DNA from: Patescibacteria group bacterium
GTDB lineage: Bacteria > Patescibacteriota > Microgenomatia > UBA1400 > PJMF01
Assembly: GCA_049322655.1 (NCBI GenBank)
Contig: JBMORP010000006.1
Coordinates: 128,410-192,409, forward strand
Direction: 5' to 3'
Length of the DNA stretch: 64,000 nucleotides
Part shown: positions 17,324 through 64,000 of the stretch, one piece after another
How the letters are laid out: each line of letters opens with the position of its first letter
How positions within the stretch are numbered: the first letter of the stretch is position 1
Program-made: the position numbers and the translations under genes
The notes under the pieces: generated by a model
Told to the model about the DNA's origin: nothing
The model's input: the letters and a program-made list of their open reading frames with translations, nothing else
Database searches by the model: none

Positions 17324-18784
17324 CTAAAAATTCTTGGTCACTTTAGGAGATAAATAACCATTTATTTGATCAAATTCTATAAGAATTTTTTGACCAGCTT
17401 CAGTTTCATAATCTGATCTAATAATATCACTGAAGTTAAATATTTCTCCTTTTCCAACTGAGTTTTTATTCTTACTGAAAATATTTACCTGTCTATCACC
17501 CAACTTAGAGGAAAAATATCCCAGTTCGACTACTTTCTCTTGATCATCATGATCAATAAAAATAGTAGCTCCGGTTGGTAGATCATGATATAAAAAATTA
17601 TTTAGACGACCAATTTCTTGATATGTTTGATAGTGAAATTGTTGATATGAAACACCCCTCTTAATAACTCCAACCCAATTTAACCCTCTTTTTTGGAAAA
17701 ATCCAATAAACAAAAAAAATAACAAAAGTGATGAGAAAAAAACCTGTTTTTTGATTTTTCTAAATAATTCTTTATTCCAAAAGCTAATTTCAATAAAAAT
17801 AAACATGAATCCAAAGAAAAGAGGAAGATAATGATATCTCTCAAGCTGATATTCCCAGCTAAAAACAAATAAAAGTGATTCTATAAATCCAATTAATATA
17901 ACAAATAACCATAAATTCCTAATTAAAAACCTCTTTATATTTTTAAAACTAAACTCTTTTATCAGCCTAATACATGAAATAAAACCTATTCCCAATAAAG
18001 GCAGATAAAACTCCGCAAATTCCAGCCTTGTAACTAGTAAACTATGCCAAATTCGATTAGGCGCAAAACTCATTGAAGAAGAATATCCCTTAAATTTTGG
18101 CATTAATAAGTAAAAAATAAGGCCCTGTAAAAACAAGGTAAAAAATAATAATATCAGTCTTTTTTTGTTTCTAAATTTTTGAAATAAATGGGTAAATATA
18201 AAGAATCCGAGCATTGGAAAAATCAATAAAGTGGTTTCTTTTGTACCTAGAGAAAACATTAAAAGAATATTTCCAATCAAGAAATCTTTGATGTTTAATT
18301 TATCTATCCTTATTTTCCTTAACCACACTAAAAACCAGATTATTCCCAATACCTGCCTTGGTTCTGCTGTTCCCAGTCTGTAAAAATTATCAATAGTTGC
18401 AGGGACAATCAAAAAAACAAGCAACCCAGATTTTAAAAGATTTTTATTAATATTTTCAAAACTAGTTATAAATGTCCAAATACCAATCAGGGTTAGTGAA
18501 AGAACAATTGCTTGACCAAACCAAAAAATAAAAGGGTTAACTCCACCAAGTAAATAAAGAGCCACAAAATACAATTGATAAAAAGGCCTCGTCCTTCCTA
18601 AATGACTTTCAAATAAAATGCTTTGCCAATTCTTTCCCTCTATAAAGTTTTTTGCATTCAGCAAACTTTGGCCATCATCTATATAGGAAAAATTAGGATT
18701 TACTATGTTTGGAGATAAATAAACAAAAGAAATCAATATTAACCAAAAGAAGGGTTTTTTAATAAGTTTTTTGATAAATATCAT
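17324..18784 (-). CDS. Polytopic membrane protein, probable GT-C fold glycosyltransferase
   Basis: More than 10 predicted TM helices; first extracytoplasmic loop SYIDDGQSLLNAKNF...HLGRTRPFY resembles the DD/DE loop of GT-C enzymes. Confidence 0.35.
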   Translation of the reverse strand: MIFIKKLIKKPFFWLILISFVYLSPNIVNPNFSYIDDGQSLLNAKNFIEGKNWQSILFESHLGRTRPFYQLYFVALYLLGGVNPFIFWFGQAIVLSLTLIGIWTFITSFENINKNLLKSGLLVFLIVPATIDNFYRLGTAEPRQVLGIIWFLVWLRKIRIDKLNIKDFLIGNILLMFSLGTKETTLLIFPMLGFFIFTHLFQKFRNKKRLILLFFTLFLQGLIFYLLMPKFKGYSSSMSFAPNRIWHSLLVTRLEFAEFYLPLLGIGFISCIRLIKEFSFKNIKRFLIRNLWLFVILIGFIESLLFVFSWEYQLERYHYLPLFFGFMFIFIEISFWNKELFRKIKKQVFFSSLLLFFLFIGFFQKRGLNWVGVIKRGVSYQQFHYQTYQEIGRLNNFLYHDLPTGATIFIDHDDQEKVVELGYFSSKLGDRQVNIFSKNKNSVGKGEIFNFSDIIRSDYETEAGQKILIEFDQINGYLSPKVTKNF

Positions 18785-19728
18785 CTCTTTTTCTCAACTT
18801 TATCAATGGATTTGATGAAAAAGTCAGGTCTCCTTTTTGTTTCATCATAGATTGCAGCCACATAAACACCCAAAAGTCCCAAAAACAAAGATAAAAAACC
18901 TCCAATAACTAAAACTACAAATAAAACACTAGCCCAACCACTAACAACTCCTGTACCCCAGAATTTCATATAAATAACATAAACAGCGTATATAAATGCG
19001 AAGAAAAATAAGATAAGACTGAAAATACCAGATAAATACAGTGGTTTAGTACTAAATGAGGTTAATCCATGAAGAGCAAGTTGAAACATCTTGAGATAAC
19101 TATATTTACTTTTTCCACGAGCTCTTTTTTCTGCTTTAAAAGGTAAAATAATAGTCTTAAATCCTAACCACTGAATCATTCCTCTCAAAAACTTTCTTTT
19201 TTCAGGCATTAAAAGTAATGCATCAACAACATTTCTACTCATTAGCCTAAAGTCTGCTCCATTTTTAGTTATTTTATTGTCAGTTAATCTATTTAAAACT
19301 TCATAAAAAGTCTTACTTAAAGCTTTTTTTAAAAAAGAGATTTCTTTATGATCTATTCTTTTTGTTAAAACAACCTCATATCCTTTTTTATTTAAATCAA
19401 TCATTTCAAGGACAACTGATAAAGGATGTTGCAGATCTGCATCTAAAGTAACAACTAACTCACCACTACTTTCTTTTAATCCTGCGAGCAATGCTGATTG
19501 GTGACCAAAATTTCTTGTAAAACTAACAATCTTTACCTCAAATCTAGATTTAATTTTTTTTAGTTTTTCCAAACTTTTATCACTGCTTCCATCATTAACA
19601 AAAATAATTTCAGTATTTTTTGGAAATTTATTTTCGAATTTAATTAATTCTTTTGCTAATAATGGAATAACTTCTGCTTCGTTAAAAATTGGAAAAACTA
19701 ATGATAATTGGGTTGATTTGTTTTTCAT
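18781..19728 (-). CDS. GT2 polyprenyl-phosphate sugar transferase (DPM1/ArnC/GtrB-like) with C-terminal TM helices
   Basis: LSLVFPIFNEAEVIPLL...IIFVNDGSSDKS...LDADLQHP, followed by two C-terminal TM helices. Confidence 0.75.
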   Translation of the reverse strand: MKNKSTQLSLVFPIFNEAEVIPLLAKELIKFENKFPKNTEIIFVNDGSSDKSLEKLKKIKSRFEVKIVSFTRNFGHQSALLAGLKESSGELVVTLDADLQHPLSVVLEMIDLNKKGYEVVLTKRIDHKEISFLKKALSKTFYEVLNRLTDNKITKNGADFRLMSRNVVDALLLMPEKRKFLRGMIQWLGFKTIILPFKAEKRARGKSKYSYLKMFQLALHGLTSFSTKPLYLSGIFSLILFFFAFIYAVYVIYMKFWGTGVVSGWASVLFVVLVIGGFLSLFLGLLGVYVAAIYDETKRRPDFFIKSIDKVEKKR

Positions 19729-20517
19729 TTACTTTAACAACCTATACATATGAATAATAATTGCATTATGAAACTTTTGTAAATTTAATAATAATTTATT
19801 TTTGGTAAATTTCTTAACAACAGAATATTGTTCAGCAAATTGATTTTTAAACTGAGAAGCACCTTTTGAGTTTTTATGAATTCTAAAGGCGGCTATTGGT
19901 TCAGTCATGATTTCTGGTTTACCAATTTTATTTAATAATCTCAGCCAATATTCATAGTCCATCACATAGTGAAGACTAGCATTAAATAAGCCTGTTTTAA
20001 TCACCTCAGAAGCTCTGATAAACACACTTGGCTGTGGAATAGGATTGAGAATACTTAAAACAGGTTTTGAGATAAACCAACGCCAAAACTGTTTATAGAG
20101 TCTAATGGGTTGTTGAATTTCATGATTGTTTTCATTAAAAATCACACAATCACCTACCAGCCATTTTACATTCTTATTTTTTTCAAAAACTTGTTGAACT
20201 TTTTTCAGTGCATCAGATAAATAATAGTCATCTGAATTAAGATAGGCAAAAATTATTTGATTAGGATCTTTATGATTCTCTTTTAGCCACGTTTCTAGTT
20301 TTCTAATACCTTTATTGATTGCATCAGCCTGACCTTTGTCTGGTTTTGACTCAAAATAAATATCTTTTTGGTTAGTAAGTAGTTCTTTACTTCCATCATT
20401 AGAACCACCATCAAATACCCAATGATTAACCTTAACTGATTGTTGCTTAACACTTGTTAAAGTTTGTTTGAGAAACTTTTTTTGATTAAAAGATGGAGTA
20501 ATAATTACAAACTCCAT
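19729..20517 (-). CDS. Glycosyltransferase family 2
   Basis: FVIITPSFNQKKFLKQTLTSVKQQ...VFDGGSNDGS...YLNSDDYY. Confidence 0.7.
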   Translation of the reverse strand: MEFVIITPSFNQKKFLKQTLTSVKQQSVKVNHWVFDGGSNDGSKELLTNQKDIYFESKPDKGQADAINKGIRKLETWLKENHKDPNQIIFAYLNSDDYYLSDALKKVQQVFEKNKNVKWLVGDCVIFNENNHEIQQPIRLYKQFWRWFISKPVLSILNPIPQPSVFIRASEVIKTGLFNASLHYVMDYEYWLRLLNKIGKPEIMTEPIAAFRIHKNSKGASQFKNQFAEQYSVVKKFTKNKLLLNLQKFHNAIIIHMYRLLK

Positions 20518-20525
20518 ATAAACTC

Positions 20526-20870
20526 CTATATTTTTTTAGGTTTTTTAAGAACGTTTTTAATAGCGTGGTCACGAACAAATTGCTCAATTTTTTTATTAGC
20601 TACTCGTTGAGTAAAGTTATTCCAAATTACTACTATAGTTAAAAGCATTAATGCTCCAACGGTTAACAAATCAAAAACTCTAGAAAATCTTAAAAACTGA
20701 GTGATTCCCATTAATAACTCTGGAAAGAGAGCAATTACTACAAAGACAATCCACAATGAATACCAAAAGAATTTCTCAGCTATAGAAAATTTAATTTGTT
20801 TATCATGAATTCTTGTCACATAAAGCATGAACAGAGCAAAAAAAGTGGCAATAATTTGAAATATACTCAT
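20526..20870 (-). CDS. Small three-TM membrane protein (DUF2304-like GT2 partner)
   Basis: 114 aa with three hydrophobic helices and a basic C-terminus; 4-nt overlap with the upstream GT2. Confidence 0.35.
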   Translation of the reverse strand: MSIFQIIATFFALFMLYVTRIHDKQIKFSIAEKFFWYSLWIVFVVIALFPELLMGITQFLRFSRVFDLLTVGALMLLTIVVIWNNFTQRVANKKIEQFVRDHAIKNVLKKPKKI

Positions 20871-21550
20871 ATACCCAGTCTCAATAACATTATTTTTCCT
20901 ACTATTTTAATTGCATCCAAGATATTCATGCCTCGATCCATGTCATGATAAATAGTCTCTATCGATACCAGAGAAAAGTCAAGTTTTTTCTTAGTAATAT
21001 TGGCTGCTATTTCCAGTTCCACACTATAATCATTGGCTTCCCACTTAATTTGTTTATAGGTTTTTTTGGTAAAAGCCTTATATCCAGACAAAATATCTGG
21101 AATATAACGGAAAAAAAGCAAGACCATGATAGCTGAAGTAAAAGCATTGCCAACCTTTCTAATTAAAGGCATGGAACCAAATAAAGACCTGGCCCCTAAG
21201 ACCAGCTGTGAACCTTCTTCGAGTCTTTTTCTAAATAGAGGAATTTCTTCTGCATCATGTTGATCATCACCATCCATCATAATAATGGCTTCAGCTCCCA
21301 ACTGGTAGAAAGCATAATCACAACCTGTTTGTAAAGCACCTCCTTTACCCAAATTAATTTCATGTCTTAAAACATGAATGGGAAATTGTTTAGCTATCTC
21401 TGAGCTACTATCATTTGAACCATCATCAACATAGATAACATTGGTTGTTTTTTTAGTAACTTTTTTGAGAACAGAAGCCAGATATTTTTCTTCGTTAAAT
21501 CCCGGAATCACAATCCAAGTTTTGGAAAAAATATTCTGATTTTTAACCAT
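20867..21550 (-). CDS. Glycosyltransferase family 2 (DPM1-like)
   Basis: WIVIPGFNEEKYLASVLKKV...VIYVDDGSNDSS...MMDGDDQHD. Confidence 0.75.
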   Translation of the reverse strand: MVKNQNIFSKTWIVIPGFNEEKYLASVLKKVTKKTTNVIYVDDGSNDSSSEIAKQFPIHVLRHEINLGKGGALQTGCDYAFYQLGAEAIIMMDGDDQHDAEEIPLFRKRLEEGSQLVLGARSLFGSMPLIRKVGNAFTSAIMVLLFFRYIPDILSGYKAFTKKTYKQIKWEANDYSVELEIAANITKKKLDFSLVSIETIYHDMDRGMNILDAIKIVGKIMLLRLGI

Positions 21551-21555: not shown

Positions 21556-22473
21556 TTAATTTGCTTTATACCACTCCGCTACTTTTTTCACTCCCTCTGC
21601 AAAACTGACTGTTGGTTCCCAACCTAGCTTTTCTTTGGCTTTTTGGTAACTCAACGAACTTGTCACTTGTTCACCTGGTCTCTCTGGGCCATATTGTTTC
21701 TCCATATCTAGCCCTAGCTCTTTCACCACCGCATCAAACACTTCGTTAGTGCTAATCTCAGTGGTGGTACCGATGTTTAATTCACCCACAAACTCAGTCT
21801 CTAGTGCTAGTAAATTAGCTTTAACCACATCAGCCACATAAACATAATCTCTGGTGTGTGTACCGTCACCATTAATAACTGGAGTTTTGCCAGTCATCAT
21901 CATTTCCGAGAAAATTGCCACGACACCGGACTCACCGTGAGCGTTTTGACGAGGGCCATAGACATTGGAATAGCGCAAAGACACATAAGGAATACCATAA
22001 AGTTCATAGTAGTAGTTCAAATAAAGCTCGCCAGCTCTTTTGGAAATCCCATATGGAGATAAGGGTTGTTCTTTCATGGTTTCAGCAAAAGGCGTTTGTT
22101 TGTTACCATACATCGCCCCACCAGTCGCAGCCATAATCACTTTTTTCACTCCCACATCTTTGGCGGCTTCCATCACATTCAGTAAACCAATCACATTATT
22201 TTCGGCATCAAACTGGGGGTTCTTGACTGAGTAACCCACCTGAATATGAGCCGCATGGTGATTAATTATCTCTGGTTTTTCTGTGCGGATAATTTGTTGA
22301 ATCTTAGCTTGATCAGTGATATCGGCTTTGATGAATTTTGCCTGATCACTGACATAATCAGTTTTACCGGTGGAAAGATTATCCACCACCAGTACTTCAT
22401 GACCAGCTTCCAAATATGCATCAACCACATGAGAACCAATAAAACCGGCTCCACCAGTGACTAAAATTTTCAT
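21556..22473 (-). CDS. galE: NAD-dependent nucleotide-sugar epimerase (UDP-glucose 4-epimerase-like)
   Basis: MKILVTGGAGFIGSHVVDAYLEAGHEVLVVDNLSTGK; SPYGISKRAGE (YxxxK); 305 aa extended SDR. Confidence 0.75.
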   Translation of the reverse strand: MKILVTGGAGFIGSHVVDAYLEAGHEVLVVDNLSTGKTDYVSDQAKFIKADITDQAKIQQIIRTEKPEIINHHAAHIQVGYSVKNPQFDAENNVIGLLNVMEAAKDVGVKKVIMAATGGAMYGNKQTPFAETMKEQPLSPYGISKRAGELYLNYYYELYGIPYVSLRYSNVYGPRQNAHGESGVVAIFSEMMMTGKTPVINGDGTHTRDYVYVADVVKANLLALETEFVGELNIGTTTEISTNEVFDAVVKELGLDMEKQYGPERPGEQVTSSLSYQKAKEKLGWEPTVSFAEGVKKVAEWYKAN

Positions 22474-22498: not shown

Positions 22499-23668
22499 TC
22501 AGGCTACCCAATAGCCCTGAATAAACAACAGTGTGTTTATTATAAGCAACAACCCGCTCAAAGCCAGCACCAAGAACCGAGTTGGTTGGTTGTTCAGCCA
22601 ATCAGCCAGTAAATAGTAAAACGGAAAGGCTGCCAAAACATATCTGGGCATACTAGAAAAAGTTCCGGTTAAAGTGGGGACAATTAAGACTAGTAAAGCA
22701 AAGATCAAGTAGGAAGCTTTTACTCGTTTCCAAAACCAAATTAATAAACCAAAAAAACCAATTGAAAAGAAAAATTCTTGGGCATAAGCAAAATATTTCC
22801 AATCTAGTGGGGTAGTAGTCAGAATTTTTAAATAGCGCCAAATGACTTGTGGCAATAAAATTAAGCCTTCTTCTCTACCAGCACCAAACTCACTTTGAAC
22901 ATGAAAGAAATACAGCGGATCAGCAAAGGTGTTATGTAAATAAAGCATGTACCCAGCCAAACCTAATACAGATATTGATAGCTGAACTAATTCTCCCCAA
23001 CCAGCTTTAATTTCTTTGGTGATGTTCTCCATCGTGAGTGGTTTATTTTTACTCAGCCACCACTCCACGATGAGAGCTGGCCAAAGTGCAATGCCAACTA
23101 CCCTAGTGGCTGAGGCCAAAGCACCCATTATCCCAGCCCACCACCATTGTTTATGGTGAGCAAAAATAAAACTGGCTAATACCACAATTAAAAACAAGCT
23201 TTCGTTATATAACGCCCCCAAAAAGAAACTGGTAGGAAAAATTAATAAAATTATGACCGCCCACCAACTAATTGAGCTTGATTTTTGTAAAACTACTTTC
23301 AGTAAATAAAAAAACAACCCACTTAACAACCAAGTCAATAAAAACTGTGATAGCAATGCCATGATGAAAAAATACTGCCCAAAAATAGCTTTTAATAAGC
23401 TCAACATCAAGGGAAAAACCGGAAAAAATGCTTGAATTAGGGCAGTTTCTAGATAGCCCTTACTGGCAATGGTTAAATAATGCACTCCATCAAAGTTGGC
23501 CCACGAATACAACCAGCGCCCTGTCGTCAATTTGGCTAAAATTTCTTTACTGTAAGGAAAACTGGGAGCATAAACTAAAAAATGATCAGCCACTAAAGCT
23601 AGTAGTAATAAAGCTAAACGCCAACTTAACACTAACCAAAATAGTTTTTGCCAAGGGATTTTTTTCAC
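22499..23668 (-). CDS. GT-C membrane mannosyltransferase-like protein (PIG-V / GT76-like)
   Basis: WANFDGVHYLTIASKGYLETALIQAFFPVFPLMLSL resembles the WD..H...IA..GY...AFFP loop of the PIG-V family; more than 8 TM helices. Confidence 0.45.
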   Translation of the reverse strand: MKKIPWQKLFWLVLSWRLALLLLALVADHFLVYAPSFPYSKEILAKLTTGRWLYSWANFDGVHYLTIASKGYLETALIQAFFPVFPLMLSLLKAIFGQYFFIMALLSQFLLTWLLSGLFFYLLKVVLQKSSSISWWAVIILLIFPTSFFLGALYNESLFLIVVLASFIFAHHKQWWWAGIMGALASATRVVGIALWPALIVEWWLSKNKPLTMENITKEIKAGWGELVQLSISVLGLAGYMLYLHNTFADPLYFFHVQSEFGAGREEGLILLPQVIWRYLKILTTTPLDWKYFAYAQEFFFSIGFFGLLIWFWKRVKASYLIFALLVLIVPTLTGTFSSMPRYVLAAFPFYYLLADWLNNQPTRFLVLALSGLLLIINTLLFIQGYWVA

Positions 23669-25309: not shown

Positions 25310-26353
25310 TTATTTTGTTAACAGGGACTGGTAAACCTGGAGTGTTTCTTCGGCCGTTTTTTCCCAGGTAAACTGCTGTTCCCAGTGACTTGCTTCTTTA
25401 ATCACTTTGTTTCTTTGTGCTTCAGTCATAGCCAGAACCAGTTCAATTTTTTCAGCAAATGATTCTGCCTCTGGGCTACTATAAATCACTACTTCTCCAC
25501 CCACTTCTTTGAGCGAAGAATTCTTGGCGCTAATTACTGGTGTTTGGCAGCGCATTGCTTCCAGTAGTGGCAAACCAAAGCCTTCATATAATGAGGGTTG
25601 GACATAAACCAAGGCTCCAGAATAAAGCGCCGACAAAGTCGCATAATCATCGGTCAAAATATCTGAGACAAAATGAACTCGGTCAGTCACATCGCTCAAG
25701 GCAATTTGGGTCGTGATTGCTTGCCATTCAGGAATTTCTTGTTCAACAAAATTTTTACCAACACACACTAAATGAACATGTCTAGGTAAATATTTCAGGG
25801 CTTTAATTAGTTGGGGAACATTTTTATTATAATTAATATCACCAACATACAAAACATAAGTCTTGGGCAAATTTAACTGCTTGCGCACCTGATCTGCATA
25901 GCTTTCCGTGGTCGGTTGTAAAAAGGGATTGGCTGCCAAATAAACAACATGAACTTTTTCGGCTGGCACCCCCAAATGAAAAACTAAATCTTTTTTGGAA
26001 GCTTGGGAATCAGTCAAGATAGCCGCTACTTTTCTCAAAGCCAATTTCTGTCTCATAAAATTCAGTGAGCCTCTTTTACCAGGAGGGTACTGTTTGGGAA
26101 ACAACAATGGAATCACATCATGAATCGTTACTACGGTTTTACCTTTATTTAAAAAAGGTAAGGTGGGAAAAAACAGATCAAAAAAAGGATAATGAGTAAT
26201 ATCTGGATTTTTAATTTCATTTAAGCCAGACCGATAAACCTCCAATTGGTTATTTTTTTCTAAAGCTGCGGTAAGAAATCTGGTGTACATCCCTACGCCT
26301 CTGACTGCATGACCAGAAGACAACGGTTGAACATTAATTAAAACTTTCATCAT
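25310..26353 (-). CDS. Glycosyltransferase family 4 (GT1 clan)
   Basis: YVQPSLYEGFGLPLLEAMRCQTPVI (E-X7-E); start taken at MMKVLINV. Confidence 0.8.
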   Translation of the reverse strand: MMKVLINVQPLSSGHAVRGVGMYTRFLTAALEKNNQLEVYRSGLNEIKNPDITHYPFFDLFFPTLPFLNKGKTVVTIHDVIPLLFPKQYPPGKRGSLNFMRQKLALRKVAAILTDSQASKKDLVFHLGVPAEKVHVVYLAANPFLQPTTESYADQVRKQLNLPKTYVLYVGDINYNKNVPQLIKALKYLPRHVHLVCVGKNFVEQEIPEWQAITTQIALSDVTDRVHFVSDILTDDYATLSALYSGALVYVQPSLYEGFGLPLLEAMRCQTPVISAKNSSLKEVGGEVVIYSSPEAESFAEKIELVLAMTEAQRNKVIKEASHWEQQFTWEKTAEETLQVYQSLLTK

Positions 26354-27123: not shown

Positions 27124-27124
27124 A

Positions 27125-52575: not shown

Positions 52576-52616
52576 ACAACACTTTAAGTTATACTTAACT
52601 AGACTTTATTTAACTT

Positions 52617-52814: not shown

Positions 52815-52818
52815 ATAT

Positions 52819-53832: not shown

Positions 53833-53848
53833 AGAAAGATTATTACCT

Positions 53849-55371: not shown

Positions 55372-55431
55372 AATGCAATTATATAATGATATACTTGGCA
55401 AGTAAGATATAAATTTTTGAAAGAATTTATC

Positions 55432-56733: not shown

Positions 56734-56746
56734 AAAGGATTAATTA

Positions 56747-57697
56747 GTGCAAAAAAACATTCTAATTACTGGTGGAACTGGTTTTGTTGGAACTCATTTA
56801 GTCAAAGAGTTAATCAAACAAGGTACTACCGCTGAAAATATTCATGTTACTACATTAAAAAAAGAACCTCATCTTTATGAAAACGGGTCTTTGCCAGAAC
56901 AAAATTATCACGCTGCTGACTTAACTAAATCAACAGTTGTTCTGGAACTATTCGAAAAACTGCGCCCACAATTAATTTATAACTTAGCTAGTTTTTCAGC
57001 TCCTGGTTTAAGTTTGGAAAAAAAGAGTTTGACTCTATCAATTAATACCAACATTCAGCTTAATGTACTTGAGGCCATGAGACTTCACACTCCACAAGCA
57101 AGATTGCTGTCAATTGGCAGCGGCACTGAATATGCCCCTTCTACCAAACCTTTAAACGAAACTGATCCACTTGGTCCCAGGAACCCGTATGCCGTTTCCA
57201 AAGTTACTCAAGACATGTTAGCTAGTAGCTACTTTGCTAGTCATAATCTAGACATTATCAGAGTAAGACCATTCAATCATATCGGTGAATATCAAGCTCG
57301 TGGTTTTGTGGTAACTGATTTTGTTTATCAAATCACCCAAGAAATAGAAAAAGGTCTCAAAAACGAGATCCAGGTGGGAAATCTAGAAGTTAAAAGAGAT
57401 TTTACTGACGTCAAAGATGTAGTAAAGGCTTATATCCTACTGATGAAAACTGCTCCAGCCGGGGAAATATACAATATTGGTAGTGGTCAAGCTATTTCGA
57501 TCAAAGAATTATTAGAAAAACTCAAAGCCATGTCAACAGTAGACTTTAACATCGTGATTGATGAAACCAAGCAAAGAACTGGGGATGTCGATATTAGTGT
57601 CGCTGATATTAGTAAGATCAAGAACTTGGGTTGGGAACCAACAATTCCCCTCGACACAACCCTCCAAAGAATAGTACAGTGGTGGAGAGAAAAATAG
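56747..57697 (+). CDS. NAD(P)-dependent nucleotide-sugar epimerase/reductase (Rmd-like GDP-4-keto-6-deoxy-D-mannose reductase candidate)
   Basis: GTG start; [30 protein letters not shown] (YxxxK); immediately upstream of gmd. Confidence 0.65.
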
Positions 57698-57707
57698 AGA
57701 GGTATTT

Positions 57708-58685
57708 ATGAAAAAAGCATTTATTACCGGTATTACCGGTCAAGATGGCTCTTATTTAGCCGAACTTTTATTAGCAAAAGGTTACCAAGTTTTTGGGCTA
57801 ACCAGAAGAACCAGTACTCAAAACTTTGCCAGAATTAAAGGCATTGTCCATGACCCAAATTTAAAACTAATTTCTGGTGACTTAGTTGATCAACACTCTC
57901 TGACTTTTGCGCTCAAAGAGATTCAACCAGATGAAATCTACAATTTAGCAGCTCAATCTTTTGTACAAGCTTCCTGGGAACAACCAGTTTTAACTGGGGA
58001 GTTCACTGGTTTAGGAGTAACAAGAATGTTGGAAGCGATGAGATTAGCCGCACCTAATGCCAAATTTTATCAAGCCAGTTCTAGTGAGATGTTTGGTAAG
58101 GTCCGCGAAACTCCACAAACAGAAGAAACTCCATTTTACCCAAGATCACCTTATGGTGTCGCCAAAGTTTATGGTCACTGGATTACAGTTAACTACCGAG
58201 AATCTTATGATTTATTTGCTGTCTCTGGAATTTTGTTCAATCATGAATCTCCTAGAAGAGGCCTAGAGTTTGTAACCAGAAAAATTGCTAATGGGGTAGC
58301 CAGAGTTAAACTTGGTAAACAAGCCCATGTTGAACTAGGCAACTTAGAAGCAAAGAGAGATTGGGGCTATGCTAAAGACTATGTCGAGGCAATGTGGTTA
58401 ATGTTGCAACAAGATGAACCAGATGACTATGTGGTTGCTACAGGAGAAACTCACTCCGTTAAAGAGTTTTTACAGTTAGCTTGTAAAGCTGCTGGTTTAC
58501 CAAATTGGGAAAAAGTCTATAAACACAACCCTATTTATGATCGACCAGCTGAAGTTGATTTGCTAATTGGTGACCCTAATAAAGCAAAAACTAAATTGGG
58601 TTGGCAACCATCAATTGATTTCGAGCAATTAGTTAAGATTATGGTTGAATCAGAAATTACTGAAGAAAGCAGAATTAGAGATTAA
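57708..58685 (+). CDS. gmd: GDP-mannose 4,6-dehydratase
   Basis: [56 protein letters not shown]; 325 aa. Confidence 0.9.
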
Positions 58686-58688
58686 GCA

Positions 58689-59873
58689 ATGTCCCTCAAA
58701 AAAGCTTTTGTTATTATTCCCACTTATAATGAAAAAGATAATATTGAGAAAACCTTATCTTTAGTCTTCGATTCACTAAAAAAAGTAACTAATTGGCAAA
58801 CTGGAGTATTAGTAGTTGATGATACTTCTCCAGACAAAACCTATGAATTAGTGAAAAAACTTCAAAAAAAATTTGTCGGCTTAGAGTTACTAATTAATGA
58901 AAAAAAAGCCGGTCTAGGTGGTGCCTATTTAAAAGGCATGGACTATGCTTTTAATCAACTCAAAGCCGATCTGGTTTTTGAGTTTGATGCTGACTTATCT
59001 CACGATCCAGAAAAATTACCCCTCTTTTTTGAGAAAATTGACCAAGGTTATGACATGGTCCTTGGCTCCAGGTATATTCCTGGTGGTAGTATCCCCACTG
59101 ATTGGGGCTTTCATCGTAAATTTTTAAGTATCGTGGGTAATATCGTTATTATGACTATTCTCACTAATTTTTCTATCAGAGATTGGACCACTGGTTATCG
59201 AGCAATTACTAAGAAAGTTTGGCAGGCTGTTCATCAAGAACTAACTGGAGAAAGATTTTCTGGGTACACTTTTCAGATTGGCTTTCTTCATAAAACAATT
59301 AAAAAAGGTTTTTCTATTGCTGAAGTACCATTTCACTTCAAAGATAGAACTTTTGGTAAAAGTAAAATAGGACCTGAGTATATTAAAAATACTCTGGAAT
59401 ACATTATGAAAGTGAGAATTAAAGATCTCTTAAAAAATAGAATTTTCAGGTTTGTGATTGTTGGTGGAATCGGGGCTTCAACTCAATTAGTTCTAGCCAA
59501 TATTTTACCTAGCTTAATATCTTTTCGTAGCTTTCCTTGGAATATTATTCCTGACTTTTTGGCCATCGAGGCAGCGGTGTTAACTAACTTTATTCTTAGT
59601 AACCTCTGGACTTTTTCCGATAGAAAATTAAATCCCAAACAATATCTACCTAAATTCTTGGCATTCAATCTTGCTTCTGGTGGCTCGATTTTAATTCAAA
59701 CTATCATTATTGGTTCAGGCATAGCGATTTTTGGCTTAAAAGACATTTTATTACTCCCAATAGTAAACATCATGTTAAATTCAAGAACTATTTTCCATAT
59801 GACCGGTATTTTAATCGGCATGTTTTGGAACTTTTTTGCCTACAACACTTTTATTTGGAAAAAGAAAAAGTAA
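58689..59873 (+). CDS. GT2 polyprenyl-phosphate sugar synthase (DPM1/GtrB-like) fused to a C-terminal GtrA-like four-TM domain
   Basis: FVIIPTYNEKDNIEKTL...VLVVDDTSPDKT...FDADLSHDP, then RFVIVGGIGASTQLVLANIL and further helices as in the GtrA family. Confidence 0.7.
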   Translation: MSLKKAFVIIPTYNEKDNIEKTLSLVFDSLKKVTNWQTGVLVVDDTSPDKTYELVKKLQKKFVGLELLINEKKAGLGGAYLKGMDYAFNQLKADLVFEFDADLSHDPEKLPLFFEKIDQGYDMVLGSRYIPGGSIPTDWGFHRKFLSIVGNIVIMTILTNFSIRDWTTGYRAITKKVWQAVHQELTGERFSGYTFQIGFLHKTIKKGFSIAEVPFHFKDRTFGKSKIGPEYIKNTLEYIMKVRIKDLLKNRIFRFVIVGGIGASTQLVLANILPSLISFRSFPWNIIPDFLAIEAAVLTNFILSNLWTFSDRKLNPKQYLPKFLAFNLASGGSILIQTIIIGSGIAIFGLKDILLLPIVNIMLNSRTIFHMTGILIGMFWNFFAYNTFIWKKKK

Positions 59874-59884
59874 TTTAGTTAACT

Positions 59885-61459
59885 ATGAAGAAACTCTTCC
59901 CTGCCAATCCTCTCAAAAGAGTTGCCCTAATTTTGCTTATTTTAGTAGCAGTTTTGCTGAGATTTTATAATCTAGAGAGGTCACTACAATTTCAAGGAGA
60001 TCAGGGTAGAGATGCCATCATCGTTGCCGATATTTTTAGACTCAAAGATCCAGTTTTTATTGGTCCAGTAACCAGTGTTGGCAATATGTATTTGGGGCCA
60101 CTTTACTACTACTTCATGTTACCGTTTTTATGGCTAAGCTATCCTAGCCCAATGGGACCAGTTTATGCTGTTGCAGCTCTTGGTTCAATTACTGTTTTCC
60201 TAGTTTATTATTTGGGCAAAAAGCTGATTGGTGAAAATGGAGCTTTGATTGCTAGTTTTTTCTATACCTTTTCCAGTACTGTTATTCAACATACCAGATT
60301 TAGTTGGAACCCTAATCCAGCTCCACTAGTCTCGATTTTAATGATTTACTTCAGCTACTTGGCTTGGAAAAAAGATTATAAATACTGGATCTGGGTCAGT
60401 ATTTGTTTCAGTATTTTAATTCAACTTCATTATTTAACTTTATTAACACTCCCAGCAGCAGGCTTGATTTGGCTTTTATCTCTGAAAGATTCCTGGAAAA
60501 AAACCACTCAAGAAAAAACTAAAAATTTTTGGCAAAAACTATCACCTTTAATGGTCCCTAGTTTTTTGGCTTTGGGAGTTTTTTTGATCTCGCTTACTCC
60601 TTTGGTTTTATTTGACCTGAAACACGAAGCCAATAACTTCAAGGCATTTCAAAGTTTAATTAAGAGTGAAGAAAACTTTAAATACACCCCCCAAGTGTCT
60701 TTTCTCACCAAATTAACCGAAACTTTCAAAGAAAATGAAGGCAGAGGAATGCATATTCTTTTTGAAACCATGATTGGTAAAAATAGACCACTTAATAAAA
60801 CCCTTCTCTATTTTGTTACTATTTTTATTACTGGCCTAATCTTAATTAAAAGTAAACAACAAAAAGATTCGGCAGCATTAACAGTCGTACTCATCTATTT
60901 ACTGGTAGGAATCGTGGGCACTTCACTTTATGAACATACTATTTTTGATCATTACATCGCTTATTTATTTCCTGTAACAGCTTTAATCTATGGCCTAGTT
61001 ATTAGCCAACTCAAACCTAGGTTGTTAGGTTTTCTTGGTTTTATTGTTTTTGCTGCTTACTTTTTAACCTACAATTGGAAGAATCTGCCACTTAAATCCA
61101 TGGGCTGGACAGTCACAGATATCCAAAAAACTAGTGAGGAAATTCTTAAACATGTTAGTCCAGGAGAAAAATATAATCTTGTTTTACTATCAGAAAGCAA
61201 AGATATTGATGGCCAAAATTATCGTTACTTTTTGACAACTGGTCATACCAGGCCAGTTAGTGCAGAAAATCGAGGAGAAGTCGAGACTCTCTTTATTATT
61301 AATGAAGAAAAAAAACTAACTAAGGTAACCGACTCACCAATCTATGAAATAGTAGTTTTTCCCAACAAAGAACCTGCTGATTTTTTCACTGTTAACAATG
61401 GCCCAGAGATTACTGTCTTAAGGAGAACTACACAACCAAAACCAGAAGGTTTAGAATAG
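59885..61459 (+). CDS. ArnT-like GT-C glycosyltransferase
   Basis: RFYNLERSLQFQGDQGRDAIIVADIF first loop; more than 10 TM helices; C-terminal soluble domain of about 120 aa; directly downstream of the Pol-P-sugar synthase. Confidence 0.6.
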   Translation: MKKLFPANPLKRVALILLILVAVLLRFYNLERSLQFQGDQGRDAIIVADIFRLKDPVFIGPVTSVGNMYLGPLYYYFMLPFLWLSYPSPMGPVYAVAALGSITVFLVYYLGKKLIGENGALIASFFYTFSSTVIQHTRFSWNPNPAPLVSILMIYFSYLAWKKDYKYWIWVSICFSILIQLHYLTLLTLPAAGLIWLLSLKDSWKKTTQEKTKNFWQKLSPLMVPSFLALGVFLISLTPLVLFDLKHEANNFKAFQSLIKSEENFKYTPQVSFLTKLTETFKENEGRGMHILFETMIGKNRPLNKTLLYFVTIFITGLILIKSKQQKDSAALTVVLIYLLVGIVGTSLYEHTIFDHYIAYLFPVTALIYGLVISQLKPRLLGFLGFIVFAAYFLTYNWKNLPLKSMGWTVTDIQKTSEEILKHVSPGEKYNLVLLSESKDIDGQNYRYFLTTGHTRPVSAENRGEVETLFIINEEKKLTKVTDSPIYEIVVFPNKEPADFFTVNNGPEITVLRRTTQPKPEGLE

Positions 61460-61468
61460 AAAAAGTTT

Positions 61469-62224
61469 ATGTCTGAAAAACCATATTTATCAGTAGTCAT
61501 TCCTTCATACAATGAGGCTAAAAATCTCGAACGAGGAACTCTAGAAGAAGTACTTTCTTTTTTAAAACAACAAACTTTTACTTGGGAAATTATTTTAACC
61601 GACGATGGTAGTAACGATGGAAGTATAACTCAATTAAATGATTTCGCCCAAAAAGATCAAAGAATCAGGCTTTTAGCTAATAAACATGCGGGCAAAGGAC
61701 CAACTGTTAAGGCTGGAATGCTAGCAGCTAACGGCCAGTGGAAATTATTCACTGACTTTGACCAATCAACACCTATTTCAGAAGTAACTAAATTACTTAA
61801 GTACACTGATAACTACCAAGTTATTTTTGGCTCAAGAGAAATAACTGGAGCTAGAAGAGATAAAGAGCCACTTTATCGACATTTAATGGGCCGAGGCTTT
61901 AATTTATTGGTCCAAATCCTAGCTGTTAGAGGAGTAAAAGATACTCAATGTGGTTTTAAAATGTTTTCTAGTGAAGCTACTGAGAAACTTTTCAAGGCTC
62001 TTTATGTTTATGGAGGCCAAGAGGTTAGAAAAGATGCTTTTACTGGAGCTTTTGATGTTGAATTACTATTTTTGGCCAGAAAAATGAAGATTGATTATAA
62101 AGAAGTTCCGATCTTATGGAAACACCATGCCACCGATCGAGTTAGCCCAATTAAAGATTCTTTAAGAATGCTCAGAGATATTCTTAAAATTAGATTTGCT
62201 TACTTAACAGGTAAATACCATTAG
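61469..62224 (+). CDS. GT2 polyprenyl-phosphate sugar synthase-like (DPM1-like catalytic domain, no TM)
   Basis: LSVVIPSYNEAKNLERGTL...EIILTDDGSNDGS...TDFDQSTPI...QCGFKMF; 251 aa. Confidence 0.65.
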   Translation: MSEKPYLSVVIPSYNEAKNLERGTLEEVLSFLKQQTFTWEIILTDDGSNDGSITQLNDFAQKDQRIRLLANKHAGKGPTVKAGMLAANGQWKLFTDFDQSTPISEVTKLLKYTDNYQVIFGSREITGARRDKEPLYRHLMGRGFNLLVQILAVRGVKDTQCGFKMFSSEATEKLFKALYVYGGQEVRKDAFTGAFDVELLFLARKMKIDYKEVPILWKHHATDRVSPIKDSLRMLRDILKIRFAYLTGKYH

Positions 62225-62228
62225 TTGG

Positions 62229-63461
62229 ATGAAAAATAAAAGATCTGTTAATTTATTGTTTTTTTGTTTATTTATAGTGAGTTTCTTCTATAGTGTTTTT
62301 TCCTATTCACTAACAGATCCAAACTTAATTATTAGCTCTTGGCAACCCTACTGGCATTTCCAACTTTGGATGTGGCAAACCTTCTTTAAAAATACTCAGC
62401 TACTAACCATTTCTTATTTGGGTTTAGTTTTAAGTTTTTTTATAATTTATTTAGTTGGTTTAAAATTTTTTGGTCACCAGAAACAACCAATAACCAAAAA
62501 AATAATTATTAAGTTTTTGATAGCTTTTTCACCCTTACTATTTAGTTATAACGCTCTATCACATGATGTTTTTAACTATATTTTCAATGCCAAGATGGTC
62601 ACTCTATTTAAAGCCAATCCTCATATCAAAACAGCTTTAGATTTTTACTATGATGACTGGACTAGATTCATGCATAACACTCACACTCCGGCACCATATG
62701 GTTACGGCTGGACTATTTTTTCAGTTATTCCTTATCTAGCCGGTTTTCATAAATTTTTATCAAGCTGGTTCATTTTTAAATTATTAGCTTGGGTCAGTTA
62801 CTACTTGCTCTTTTTGACTTTAACAAAATTTTCAGAAAAACTAACCAACAAAAAACTAACTTTACAACAAACTTGGTTAATTTTTGCCAACCCGTTATTA
62901 GTTATAGAAATTCTTTCTAATCTCCATAATGATTTGTGGATGTTAGTGCCAGCTATCGCGGCTTTAAATATGGTGATTGATAAACCCAAAAAATATTTAG
63001 TGCCCAAAGCGATAATCTCTCTCTTGTTATTAGCTTTTTCTATTAGCACCAAACTAGCAACTATTACCCTAATTCCATTTTGGTTTTATTGGTTCGGTAA
63101 ATGGTTTATTCATAATCATAAAATCTTCACCTCAATTTTAAGCTATGAAACCTTGTTTCCAAGCTTAATCTCAATAACTTTGTTCCTGCCACTTCTTACA
63201 GAAAGATCAAAAATGTTTTTACCTTGGTACTTAATTTGGTCTTTAATTTGGCTAGGCCAAAATAAGTTAAAATTTTGGCAAAACTGGTTGTTAGCCCTAA
63301 GTTTAACAGCACTGCTTCGCTACCTACCCTGGTTATTAGCTGGCGGTTTTACTGAATTAGTCGAAAATCAACAAAAAATCCTAGTCTGGGGTGGTGGTTT
63401 AACTTTATTTATCGTTTTTCAACTAGTGAACTGGTTAAAAAAGCCAACTAGCAGAAACTAA
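62229..63461 (+). CDS. Polytopic membrane protein, possible GT-C (GT87/DUF2029-like) glycosyltransferase
   Basis: About 11 TM helices; loop FSYNALSHDVFNYIFNAKMV...NPH with a conserved Asp; no closer assignment possible. Confidence 0.3.
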   Translation: MKNKRSVNLLFFCLFIVSFFYSVFSYSLTDPNLIISSWQPYWHFQLWMWQTFFKNTQLLTISYLGLVLSFFIIYLVGLKFFGHQKQPITKKIIIKFLIAFSPLLFSYNALSHDVFNYIFNAKMVTLFKANPHIKTALDFYYDDWTRFMHNTHTPAPYGYGWTIFSVIPYLAGFHKFLSSWFIFKLLAWVSYYLLFLTLTKFSEKLTNKKLTLQQTWLIFANPLLVIEILSNLHNDLWMLVPAIAALNMVIDKPKKYLVPKAIISLLLLAFSISTKLATITLIPFWFYWFGKWFIHNHKIFTSILSYETLFPSLISITLFLPLLTERSKMFLPWYLIWSLIWLGQNKLKFWQNWLLALSLTALLRYLPWLLAGGFTELVENQQKILVWGGGLTLFIVFQLVNWLKKPTSRN

Positions 63462-63485
63462 ACTGACTAGTTACAATAAAATTCA

Positions 63486-64000
63486 ATGAATAAAACAAAA
63501 AAGCAGTTGTTTTGGAAACTAGGCTTAGGTTTGGTGGTGCTTGGCTATCTTTTAACCCATCTAATTGGCTTAACTTTATTGCCTGTCTTTGCTGATGAAG
63601 CGATTTATCTTCGCTGGGCTCAACTCATTCTTGATGATGGACAAAGATATTTGTTTTTCCCCATGAATGATGGCAAAACACCACTTTTTATTTGGTTGCT
63701 AGCTACAGCTTTAAAAACCCACCTCGATCCTTTATTGGCTGGAAGACTGGTCGCTGTTATTACTGGTTTATTTCAAGTTTTGGTAACAGCTAAACTAAGC
63801 CAAAAACTAGGCGGCGGTTGGCTAGCCAAAGTTATAGCTATCTTTTTGGTAATGTTTTTACCATACTGGTATTTTCATCACCGCATGGCCTTAATGGACG
63901 GTTTACTCACCTTGTTTCTCTCAGCTGCACTATTATTTTTAATTAACAGTTTTTCTCAAAACAAACCAAAAAATGTTATTTTAGCTGGTTTATTTCTAGG
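63486..64000 (+). CDS. ArnT/PMT-like GT-C glycosyltransferase, N-terminal part; the gene runs off the window end
   Basis: ATG at 63486; VFADEAIYLRWAQLILDDGQRYLFFPMNDGKTPLFIWLLA first loop matches the ArnT signature (DE.RYA...G.W..P...DKPPL.YW-like); open to position 64000. Confidence 0.6.
   Translation, partial: MNKTKKQLFWKLGLGLVVLGYLLTHLIGLTLLPVFADEAIYLRWAQLILDDGQRYLFFPMNDGKTPLFIWLLATALKTHLDPLLAGRLVAVITGLFQVLVTAKLSQKLGGGWLAKVIAIFLVMFLPYWYFHHRMALMDGLLTLFLSAALLFLINSFSQNKPKNVILAGLFL

Follow-up and report, generated by a model that had tools for sequence, protein, structure and literature searches.

The stretch of DNA analysed here (the window, 64,000 nucleotides) comes from a Microgenomatia-type Patescibacteria (CPR) bacterium, an uncultured organism with a tiny genome, in which surface-sugar synthesis occupies more than 64 kb. 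An ORF check recovered, at the same coordinates, every ORF named in an earlier sequence-only reading of the region (genes are named below by their lowest coordinate). Most ORFs lie on the minus strand, with positions 42459-46826 and 51439-64000 on the plus strand except for trmD (54718-55506, minus). The housekeeping genes for ArgRS and TrmD interrupt the region, which is thus not one operon. Thirteen proteins are membrane glycosyltransferases of the GT-C type by Pfam, phmmer paralogy, hhalign profile-profile comparison or structure; one more (62229) is a probable member and another (22499) is unproven. The dense GT-C array proposed by the sequence-only reading is therefore real, and its membrane proteins are GT-C enzymes, neither transporters nor ligases. 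With 13-15 membrane GT-C enzymes, the region shows an unusual density of component types that are themselves known. Purpose-built family HMMs matched 13 ORFs within the 64-kb window and none in the ArgRS-anchored loci of other genomes, CPR and non-CPR, totalling 1.28 Mb, indicating that the GT-C density is more than chance. As judged with a crude hydropathy script, not a dedicated predictor, most of these proteins begin with a short N-terminus rich in Lys/Arg, followed by TM1 and a 50-90 aa loop with an invariant Asp or Glu; in alignments, the acidic residue of this long loop is kept within each GT-C family.

Families of GT-C proteins

Seven proteins had been assigned an ArnT-type first loop. 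Five of them form one old paralog family (group A, all minus strand), and the complete DE...FGD[YW]K.P motif is present in five proteins only. The gene products of 27125-28723 (PMT_2 39.8 bits, DE...FGDYK.P loop) and 28720-30405 (32.4 bits) reach the PMT_2 gathering score, and phmmer relates 27125 to the remaining members, with 34434, 39796 and 32589 as clear paralogs of both (E 1e-20 to 1e-56). Two of these match PMT_2 below threshold, 34434-36026 (20.9 bits; phmmer E 1e-24 to 1e-38 to group A members) and 39796-41499 (19.6 bits; E 1e-42 to 27125), and 32589-34262 has no Pfam match and is placed by phmmer (E 7e-55 to 28720). Identity to the orthologs of 27125 is 86% for L002 and 59% for L020; those of 28720 are 85% and 62% identical and those of 34434 63% and 57%, and single orthologs were found for 32589 in L020 (56%) and for 39796 in L163 (54%). 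In L082, a 94%-identical relative, 39796 has no counterpart between the flanking GT2 genes.

Group B consists of 23668-25308 and 49610-51397 (both minus), which are mutual paralogs (phmmer E 1.8e-23) with an invariant H-D-x(2-3)-H-x-x-R loop motif; for 23668, where it reads H-D-x3-H-x-x-R, all 14 sequences keep residues H32, D33, H37 and R40. The former scores 25.6 bits for GT-C_AftD, just under the cut-off of 26, and the latter matches PMT_2 near the threshold (25.7 bits) and, at its C-terminus, YfhO (16 bits). By hhalign the group B profile reaches 97.0% to the 17324 family and 92.7% (reverse, 95.3%) to the 59885 family. The product of 42459-44513 (plus), which had been grouped with these two as YfhO-like, belongs to a different family and that assignment was rejected: it is a GT-C of a Pfam-less CPR family with a DPY19/STT3-like fold, whose closest folds are the peptide-modifying GT-Cs DPY19 and STT3/AglB/PglB and whose C-terminal domain resembles that of AglB. 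Inspection of its sequence revealed no WWDxG motif.

The remaining GT-C proteins fall into separate families. The two proteins said to carry HPPL do so: 45699-46826 (plus) is a short (~365 aa) GT-C that is GT39-like and carries an EHPPL loop (invariant residues D64, E87, P89 and P90; related to the 46784 family by hhalign at 96.5%, E 9e-10), some of whose 87 homologs carry PMT/PMT_2, and 46784-48118 (minus) is a GT39-like GT-C with ADE and DHPPL loops, many of whose 84 homologs carry PF02366/PF13231 and are named GT39 by some sources; its profile matches yeast Pmt1 (6P25) at E 4.5e-4. The singleton family of 17324-18784 (minus) has a conserved DDG first loop and no Pfam match; 255 homologs were found, 5 of the 50 scanned match PMT_2, and profile comparison links the family to 46784 (94.8%, E 5e-8), group A (96.6%) and group B (97.0%). 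The gene at 59885-61459 (plus) encodes a distinct PMT_2 family (40.0 bits, at or above the gathering score) with a GDQGRD loop and 97.2% to group A by hhalign, and is a conserved cassette partner in at least seven CPR contigs. At the right-hand end, the window truncates a GT39-type GT-C gene, of which it holds the 5' part (63486-64000, plus; PMT_2 25.2 bits; PMT 22.9 against a cut-off of 22.7); the 519-aa ortholog in L083 is full length (PMT_2 47.7, PMT 26.7). Two families of the region had no annotation.

Of the two less certain polytopic membrane proteins, 62229-63461 (plus) belongs to a Pfam-less family without a match in Pfam or PDB and is a probable GT-C by hhalign to the 17324 family (86.8%, E 4e-6); all 47 sequences keep the loop Asp (D113) and H233-N234-D235, and its single-sequence AF2 model failed (pLDDT 50.5). 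A PIG-V-like GT-C identity for 22499-23668 (minus) is possible and unproven, as suggested by Pfam Mannosyl_trans2 (E 0.0099, 15.7 bits), NCBIfam AZOBR_p60025 (E 0.0023) and hhalign to the 46784 family (40.9%, with a profile from two sequences only); an ortholog with 53% identity occupies the matching position in L020.

L020, L002, L082 and L163 share the gene order of the region. Identity is 53-86% between orthologs as compared to 25-30% between paralogs, indicating that the paralogs are old and individually retained, and most of them have one-to-one orthologs in kept order across genomes whose ArgRS is only 74% identical. Behind gmd, the cassette [GT2-GtrA][PMT_2][GT2][62229][PMT] recurs in at least seven CPR contigs.

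Carrier-linked sugars, sugar supply and export

The three GT2 genes proposed as polyprenyl-phosphate sugar synthases are supported as GtrB/ArnC/DPM1-type enzymes by Pfam and PDB matches. The first, 18781-19728 (minus), is a GtrB/ArnC-type enzyme with two C-terminal TM helices (Pfam GT2 91.5 bits) that matches GtrB sll0501 (5EKP) over its full length (E 4.4e-62), ArnC (E 6e-42) and DPMS (E 7e-22); 58689-59873 (plus) combines a GT2 with a GtrA/DPMS TM domain in one protein (GT2 90.9 bits, GtrA_DPMS_TM 52.5 bits; best NCBIfam matches PgfS, AglJ and ArnC); and 61469-62224 (plus), a DPM1-like soluble GT2, is a probable synthase by its best PDB matches (DPMS 5e-12, GtrB 8e-11, ArnC 1e-10) and its top NCBIfam match, PgfS. 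The count of three missed a fourth candidate, the PpgS/GacI-like GT2 at 20867-21550 (minus; Pfam GT2 87.4 bits), whose best NCBIfam matches (PpgS, a full-length match of 103 bits, AglJ and Dol-P hexose transferase) all lie below equivalog cut-offs. Its neighbor at 20526-20870 (minus) is a small DUF2304 membrane protein (44.5 bits against a cut-off of 25.5) resembling the activators GacJ and Rv3632. GacJ is a DUF2304 protein that stimulates GacI (bioRxiv 10.1101/180810), and the pair in the window matches the experimentally characterized GacI/GacJ-GacL and PpgS/Rv3632 systems.

The GT-C genes are flanked by a Wzx/MOP-type flippase (48120-49613, minus; Polysacc_synt_3 148 bits) and a LytR-CpsA-Psr (LCP) glycopolymer-to-peptidoglycan ligase (51439-52575, plus; Pfam 100.1 bits), an arrangement that recurs in L082 and L163, where 49610 also adjoins both genes. 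Downstream, Pfam and NCBIfam identify nucleotide-sugar genes at 52819-58685 (plus), namely RmlB (479.6 bits) and Gmd (438.9 bits), both above the NCBIfam cut-off, an RmlD-like protein, UDP-Glc 6-dehydrogenase and an SDR. A GalE-like NDP-sugar epimerase/dehydratase lies at 21556-22473 (minus; Pfam Epimerase 210 bits, NCBIfam galE 194 bits and sub-threshold). By Pfam, cytoplasmic glycosyltransferases on the minus strand comprise a soluble GT2 at 19729-20517 (PF00535), a GT4 (25310-26374) and a GT2 (26350-27156), a run of GT2, GT4, GT2 and GT2 at 36023-39775 whose order is kept in L020, L082 and L163, and a GT2 at 41508-42440. Pfam scans of the window detected neither a Wzy polymerase nor an initiating phosphoglycosyl transferase of the WecA/WbaP type, leaving the primer step unaccounted for within the window.

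Adjoining the GT-C region is a glycan cluster with an ABC exporter that had been overlooked (479-17298, minus; Pfam). It encodes about eight GT2, one GT11, one GT4, methyltransferases, an ATP-grasp protein and a DegT aminotransferase, together with Wzt (14343-15539, minus), Wzm (15540-16361, minus) and an Fcl-like protein (16363-17298, minus; NCBIfam Fcl 303 bits). Its GC content is 26-29%, compared to 34-40% rightward, and this deviant cluster may make a separate product.

A proposed cell-envelope glycan factory and its alternatives

We favor, with a probability of roughly 0.6, the reading that the region is a cell-envelope glycan factory with several "three-component" extracytoplasmic glycosylation modules that, together with Wzx, Wzm/Wzt and the LCP ligase, make and decorate a wall glycopolymer and probably decorate surface proteins. 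The set of four GtrB/DPM1/PpgS-type synthases, Wzx flippase, GtrA-like domain and LCP ligase argues for this reading, and the proposal of multistep, lipid-carrier-dependent glycosylation outside the cytoplasm, fed by polyprenyl-phosphate synthases, is consistent with all tests. We infer the direction of flow, the donors and acceptors, and the service of all genes to one envelope structure. Cytoplasmic enzymes would supply dTDP-rhamnose precursors, UDP-glucuronate and GDP-mannose-derived 6-deoxy sugars, from which the soluble GT2 and GT4 enzymes would assemble a lipid-linked glycan for export via Wzx (48120) or Wzm/Wzt (14343-16361). The GT2 enzymes 18781, 20867 with its DUF2304 partner, 58689 and 61469 would load single sugars onto polyprenyl monophosphate, and the GtrA-like domain of 58689, perhaps with Wzx, would flip the loaded carriers outward. 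At the outer face, the 13-15 GT-C proteins would add these sugars stepwise to the wall glycopolymer, which the LCP enzyme (51439) would ligate to peptidoglycan, and they would probably also transfer them onto Pro/Thr-rich surface proteins.

The region might instead serve mainly protein O-glycosylation, in the manner of actinobacterial Ppm1/Pmt or S. mutans Pgf, with the GT39/PMT-like enzymes and 42459 acting on secreted or sortase-anchored Pro/Thr-rich proteins, S-layer proteins or pilins and successive GT-Cs elongating the protein-linked glycan. The families of 46784 and 63486 match Pfam PMT (PF02366) and the 46784 profile matches yeast Pmt1, 42459 is nearest to peptide-modifying enzymes and has the AglB-like domain, and the best NCBIfam matches of 58689 and 61469, PgfS and AglJ, both serve protein glycosylation. 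Moreover, a mucin-like, secreted Pro/Thr-rich protein ending in LPETG and a hydrophobic tail, as read directly from its sequence, is encoded at 44778-45674 (plus; NCBIfam LPXTG_anchor 13.4 bits, E 0.098, sub-threshold), between 42459 and 45699/46784, and is the sole candidate protein acceptor in the window. Conservation of 44778 is, however, limited to the closest relative, L082 (94%), and the protein is missing from this position in L163, L165, L166 and L167; 42459 lacks WWDxG; PMT and PMT_2 models also match GT-Cs that modify glycolipids or polysaccharides, such as ArnT; and the LCP ligase and Wzx, together with the rhamnose genes and numerous cytoplasmic GT2/GT4 enzymes, indicate a wall polysaccharide, so that we regard a mainly protein-directed role as unlikely.

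Another alternative differs from the favored one in placing most polymerization outside the membrane, where processive and branching GT-Cs would draw on polyprenyl-phosphate sugars as in arabinogalactan/LAM synthesis of the Corynebacterineae, instead of decoration after cytoplasmic assembly. To our knowledge, the number and diversity of GT-Cs (13-15) are comparable only to those of mycobacterial cell-wall synthesis; 23668 falls just short of the AftD model threshold, the PpgS/Rv3632-like pair corresponds to a module that modifies arabinogalactan in mycobacteria, and an LCP ligase is present. Yet the resemblance to the Aft/Emb families is weak and unspecific, Pfam found no genes for decaprenyl-phosphoarabinose or another lipid-pentose pathway in the window, and the roughly 20 GT2/GT4 enzymes of the cytoplasm, along with two export systems, imply much cytoplasmic assembly, making external polymerization distinctly improbable. 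Least plausible are alternative, dispensable decorations akin to Shigella Gtr serotype conversion, kept by phage/host diversifying selection without forming a pathway. Surface glycans are common phage receptors, 39796 is absent from L082 and L163 has an additional gene of 523 aa, and the deviant GC of the left-hand cluster is typical of variable O-antigen-like loci, but one-to-one orthologs in kept order at 74% ArgRS identity are the opposite of rapid turnover, and no mobile-element, tRNA or phage genes were seen in the window.

Relation to known systems

The claim that this architecture had not been described is too strong, since public CPR genomes share the gene order, among them Ca. Pacebacteria CG2_30_36_39, GCA_964433225.1 and a GW2011_GWB1_47_8-type genome, although our literature search found no paper analysing these GT-C arrays; comparable arrays in further Patescibacteria genomes are auto-annotated as GT39. 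To take one ArnT with one ArnC as the norm overlooks systems with several GT-Cs, for example arabinogalactan/LAM synthesis in mycobacteria, and also lactococci with their multiple three-component systems.

GT-C enzymes and their conserved loop residues

The sequence-only reading had counted at least 15 genes for polytopic membrane glycosyltransferases of the GT-C type, with coordinates that proved correct throughout (genes are named here by their start in the window). Combining Pfam, paralogy, family profiles and fold, we regard 13 of them as solid and one (62229) as probable, leaving one (22499) unproven. Those counted as solid have 8-13 TM helices together with a match to a GT-C sequence model or fold, and none of the 15 was placed in a transporter or ligase family. 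In Pfam, 27125, 28720 and 59885 score at or above the PMT_2 cut-off, and the 63486 fragment lies at the PMT cut-off (22.9 versus 22.7 bits), its full-length ortholog scoring PMT_2 47.7. The five members of group A (27125, 28720, 32589, 34434 and 39796) are linked by phmmer (E 1e-20 to 1e-56), as is the group B pair, 23668 and 49610 (E ~1e-23), which also has near-threshold GT-C_AftD and PMT_2 matches. There is no direct Pfam match for 46784 (444 aa) or 45699 (~365 aa); homologs of 46784 bear PMT or PMT_2 and are sometimes named GT39, and its family profile matches yeast Pmt1, the only one of the family profiles run against PDB sequences to do so. The 45699 and 17324 families align to the 46784 family at 96.5% and 94.8%, respectively, in hhalign, and a local hhalign network at 92.7-98.7% unites groups A and B, 59885, 46784, 45699 and 17324. 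Single-sequence phmmer of 46784, 45699 and 42459 against PDB returned nothing meaningful, the family profiles of 42459, 45699, 17324 and 62229 found no GT-C match among PDB sequences, and NCBIfam gave only weak AZOBR_p60025 matches for the unannotated membrane proteins. As a control, we ran the family HMMs on 1.28 Mb of ArgRS-anchored loci drawn from other genomes, both CPR and non-CPR, and obtained no match, against 13 matching ORFs in the window.

The probable member, 62229, has no Pfam model and no PDB match; its family aligns at 86.8% to the 17324 family in hhalign and has an invariant loop Asp. A single-sequence AF2 model was unusable (pLDDT 50.5), and an exact-protein look-up found no record of this gene, which lies beyond the end of the Logan contig described below. 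For 22499, Mannosyl_trans2 reaches 15.7 bits of the 22.4 required (E 0.0099, residues 20-305), below the PIG-V/GT76 threshold; its profile is thin, with one ortholog only, hhalign gives 40.9%, and a scan of viral_contigs revealed no relatives. We also considered the Pfam-less membrane proteins as O-antigen ligases or Wzy polymerases and rejected this assignment, the sole Wzy_C trace being one distant homolog of 62229 (E 0.025).

An acidic residue (Asp or Glu) is conserved in the first long loop: E37 in 11/11 and D36 in 9/11 group A sequences, D33 in 14/14 of group B, D39 and D43 in 19/21 of the 59885 family, D113 in 47/47 of the 62229 family, and D36 and D37 each in at least 90% of the 17324 family, with an invariant Asp in the 46784 (D33), 45699 (D64) and 42459 (D153) families. 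As indicated by a crude hydropathy and positive-inside script, most of the proteins begin with a short Lys/Arg-rich N-terminus followed by TM1 and then the long loop; in 42459, several N-terminal helices precede the D153 loop. The loop motifs redraw some of the sub-groups first proposed. An ArnT-type loop, DE...FGD[YW]K.P, had been ascribed to seven genes and marks only the five of group A, 59885 (GDQGRD) and 63486 (ADE...DGK.P) representing separate PMT_2 families. Similarly, a YfhO-like trio of 23668, 42459 and 49610 does not hold together: the sole PF09586 match is that of 49610, at 16 versus 28.5 bits over the C-terminal 75 residues, with none for 23668 and 42459, and it is 23668 and 49610 that have the invariant motif H-D-x(2-3)-H-x-x-R in common. 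The pairing of 45699 and 46784 by an HPPL motif was borne out, both being short and GT39-like, with neither MIR nor 4TMC domains. No window protein carries MIR or PMT_4TMC, and the PMT cut-off is reached by the 63486 fragment only; by sequence, 46784 and 45699 are GT39-like enzymes distinct from canonical Pmt (GT39). The two genes, 45699-46826 (+) and 46784-48118 (-), run towards each other and share 43 nt at their 3' ends, an overlap also found in the corresponding locus of GCA_964433225.1 (L082).

The 42459 family is likewise without a Pfam model, and its named homologs all come from CPR/Patescibacteria bar one labelled Vitreimonas. A high-confidence model predicts a DPY19/STT3-like fold for 42459, which is unrelated to group B. 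Comparison with STT3 revealed no Pfam STT3 match and no PDB match with the family profile, and the sequence contains no WWD motif; we therefore rejected 42459 as a true OST, WWDxG being missing and the sequence signal nil.

Polyprenyl-phosphate sugar synthases and the surrounding glycan island

Three GT2 enzymes had been proposed to charge polyprenyl phosphate, and 18781, 58689 and 61469 are indeed of the GtrB/ArnC/DPM1 type, 61469 being the weakest case; a fourth synthase, 20867, had been overlooked. 18781 (2 TM helices) matches GtrB 5EKP over its full length (E 4.4e-62), ArnC (6e-42) and DPMS (7e-22), 58689 is a GT2 joined to a GtrA/DPMS TM domain (GtrA_DPMS_TM), and 61469 is soluble, with no TM helix, and has DPMS, GtrB and ArnC as its top PDB matches (E 5e-12 to 1e-10). 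PgfS and AglJ are among the best NCBIfam matches of 58689 and 61469, PgfS being the best for two of the GT2s. 20867 encodes a 227-aa GT2 with PpgS as top NCBIfam match and is followed, with a 4-nt overlap, by a DUF2304 gene (20526-20870), the two together occupying 20526-21550 on the - strand. By sequence, these genes resemble the GacI/GacJ and PpgS/Rv3632 pairs, with 20867 as a fourth candidate polyprenyl-phosphate sugar synthase: the DUF2304 protein GacJ activates the Und-P-GlcNAc synthase GacI, after which the GT-C GacL transfers the sugar, and Rv3632 has GacJ's role for PpgS (bioRxiv 10.1101/180810). The four co-located GtrB/DPM1/PpgS-type synthases suggest that the GT-Cs may use polyprenyl-phosphate-linked donors.

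Coding sequence fills almost the whole window, and a Pfam search that covered every window ORF of at least 150 aa assigned nearly all of them to glycan biosynthesis. Between 17324 and 64000, the membrane proteins under study are accompanied by 10 GT2 and two GT4 enzymes, a Wzx (48120), an LCP ligase (51439) and six nucleotide-sugar enzymes, with only three genes foreign to this theme (ArgRS, TrmD and a small ORF). The scores of RmlB and Gmd exceed the NCBIfam cut-offs. The window also encodes UDP-Glc dehydrogenase and Fcl-like enzymes and, when scanned for tRNAs and Rfam families, gave no tRNA and no match. The window is AT-rich, with a GC content of 26-29% at positions 1-17 kb versus 34-40% elsewhere. 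The left cluster (1-17298, - strand) is a complete ABC-transporter-dependent glycan locus, encoding ~8 GT2, a GT11 fucosyltransferase-type enzyme, a GT4, methyltransferases including methyltransferase-GT2 fusions, an ATP-grasp protein, a DegT aminotransferase, Wzt/Wzm and an Fcl-like reductase. It is possibly an O-antigen-like unit, either acquired horizontally or hypervariable. A Logan contig, SRR32167788_27246 (77,195 nt), is identical to part of the window (contig position = window position + 23823) and ends near window position 53372, which shows that the window derives from another assembly of the same, or almost the same, organism. On this contig the glycan island runs at least 10 kb past the window start, leftward (10745-20744). 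In addition to two GT4 enzymes and two epimerases, this stretch encodes a second Wzx-like flippase, a 605-aa PMT_2 protein and a 512-aa membrane protein with similarity to the 45699 family (E 9e-9). In total, the island exceeds 64 kb and comprises 13-15 GT-Cs, ~20 further glycosyltransferases, two export systems and the LCP ligase.

Gene order and paralog age in related genomes

The ArgRS is 94% identical to that of GCA_964433225.1, 74% to that of Ca. Pacebacteria CG2_30_36_39 and ~50-55% to those of Levy-, Roizman- and Woesebacteria, placing the window in a Microgenomatia-type member of the Patescibacteria (CPR). GCA_964433225.1 and several other MAGs are titled "uncultured Pseudomonadales" or "Gammaproteobacteria bacterium", yet are Patescibacteria by ArgRS and synteny, so that their taxonomy looks mislabelled.

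In Ca. Pacebacteria CG2_30_36_39, where orthologs share 53-84% identity, the genes are still ordered GT2-GT2-GT4-GT2-34434-32589-ArgRS-28720-27125-GT2-GT4-23668-22499. For every group A paralog, identity to a separate ortholog is 54-86%, compared with 25-30% to its siblings in the window, from which we conclude that the group A duplications are old and that each copy has been retained; the same figures led us to reject a recent tandem duplication. A GW2011_GWB1_47_8-type contig (L163) retains LCP, group B, Wzx, 46784 and 45699, then GT2 and group A genes, and a block rmlB-rmlD-trmD-ugd-SDR-gmd-[GT2+GtrA]-[PMT_2]-[GT2]-[62229]-[PMT] recurs in at least seven metagenomic CPR contigs. Turnover is seen in an extra 523-aa gene in L163 and in 39796-41499, which the 94% relative lacks at the corresponding site (L082 16626-16843, flanked by the same pair of GT2 genes) and the more distant L163 has; the gap in GCA_964433225.1 is a recent loss or a presence/absence polymorphism. 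Other Patescibacteria also carry arrays of a similar kind, one 953-kb contig having nine GT-C-like genes in 17 kb and a locus in another genome (L165) a series of genes resembling group A, 42459, 59885 and 45699.

Proposed pathway and comparison with known systems

From the enzyme families, motifs and synteny that we observe, the island is best read as several three-component modules of extracytoplasmic glycosylation added onto conventional cytoplasmic glycan assembly, for which we infer donors, acceptors and an order of steps. Nucleotide sugars would be produced by RmlB, Gmd, UDP-Glc dehydrogenase and the Fcl-like enzymes, and the GT2 and GT4 enzymes would build from them a lipid-linked glycan, exported through Wzx or Wzm/Wzt. 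The four synthases would load single sugars onto polyprenyl phosphate, the GT-Cs, with their conserved loop Asp or Glu past TM1, would transfer these carrier sugars outside the membrane, and the LCP enzyme would finally anchor the polymer on peptidoglycan.

Protein glycosylation is a serious rival to these modules, or an additional function of the island, to which the DPY19/STT3-like fold of 42459 points, as do the GT39-like families and, for two synthases, PgfS and AglJ as top matches. So does 44778 (44778-45674, + strand), located between 42459 and 45699. It encodes a 298-aa Pro/Thr-rich protein that is anchored in the membrane at its N-terminus, is Cys-rich in the middle and continues through a long mucin-like linker of the PTTAPT type to LPETG and a hydrophobic tail. 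This protein resembles a sortase substrate, with an LPXTG model score of 13.4 bits that is sub-threshold and the usual basic C-terminal tail missing, but its only counterpart lies in the closest, 94% relative (L082 12448-13605), and we therefore rejected it as a conserved partner of 42459, 45699 and 46784. We consider unlikely a bolder reading, in which the envelope glycome of this lineage is built largely outside the membrane by an outsize GT-C toolkit, with at least two families absent from Pfam and the 42459 family acting as a DPY19/STT3-like protein glycosyltransferase, for example on 44778. If it were true, the 42459 family would be a bacterial protein glycosyltransferase class not recognised before, and a possible basis of host recognition or attachment by these episymbionts.

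The CPR/Patescibacteria make up a large, mostly uncultured share of bacterial diversity, have small genomes and appear to need contact with a host-cell surface. Surface glycans are barely mentioned in the searchable literature on these lineages: searches for CPR, Patescibacteria or Microgenomates with PMT, GT39, GT-C or glycosyltransferase returned no study of GT-C arrays, and a wider search gave only tangential papers, apart from a passing mention of "29 glycosyl transferases" for one Microgenomates genome (PMC7143001). The sequences themselves have long been public, some labelled GT39, and a conserved, ancient module architecture is hidden under these automatic "GT39" or "hypothetical" labels. 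The longest contigs of related lineage members measure 0.6-1.4 Mb; set against these, an island of more than 64 kb makes surface glycans look a major investment. The island also offers enzyme sets open to test, namely four synthases and GT-C paralog families each with a predicted conserved catalytic residue, and yields two unannotated GT-C families, one with the high-confidence DPY19/STT3-like model.

All component types are already known from Gtr/Arn, GacI/J/K/L, PpgS/Rv3632/Rv3779, Ppm1/Pmt, Pgf and the mycobacterial GT-Cs; what is unusual is that a single island in a small-genome lineage brings together four synthases and 13-15 GT-Cs of at least eight families, that this arrangement is kept across the lineage, and that two GT-C families have no Pfam model. 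Gtr three-component systems (GtrA, GtrB and a GtrX-type GT-C, with ArnC/ArnT following the same logic) are matched by the full-length GtrB homolog 18781, the GtrA/DPMS TM domain of 58689 and the first-loop acidic residue of the PMT_2-type GT-Cs. However, those systems pair one GT-C with each synthase and occur in enterobacteria and phages, whereas here 13-15 GT-Cs from at least eight sequence families and four synthases, with no stand-alone GtrA, are found in a monoderm-type CPR bacterium. GacI/GacJ/GacK/GacL (group A carbohydrate side chain) and PpgS/Rv3632/Rv3779 resemble the island in the ~227-aa GT2 adjoining a DUF2304 protein, as well as in its Wzx-type flippase, GT-Cs, rhamnose genes, ABC exporter and LCP ligase; unlike them, the window has far more GT-Cs, and the PpgS score of 20867 (103 versus the 370-bit equivalog cut-off) does not imply sugar specificity. 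Actinobacterial Ppm1 and Pmt (GT39) and S. mutans Pgf share with it GT39/PMT-model matches with an HPPL loop, a DPM1-like soluble enzyme (61469), PgfS as top match of two GT2s and a Pro/Thr-rich LPETG protein, but 45699 and 46784 (~365 and 444 aa) are much shorter than Pmt and lack a MIR domain, and the Pro/Thr-rich gene is no conserved neighbour. STT3/AglB/PglB and DPY19 resemble 42459 at the fold level only, sequence similarity being undetectable and 42459 having no WWDxG. Finally, the mycobacterial and corynebacterial EmbA-C, AftA-D, MptA-C and PimE likewise comprise many GT-Cs acting on polyprenyl-phosphate sugars outside the membrane, with LCP attachment, the window's AftD-model and fold matches being weak; there is no specific sequence relationship, the window is without arabinose-donor genes, and the mycobacterial and corynebacterial set is scattered over a 4-Mb genome, whereas the GT-Cs described here are concentrated in a single island exceeding 64 kb.
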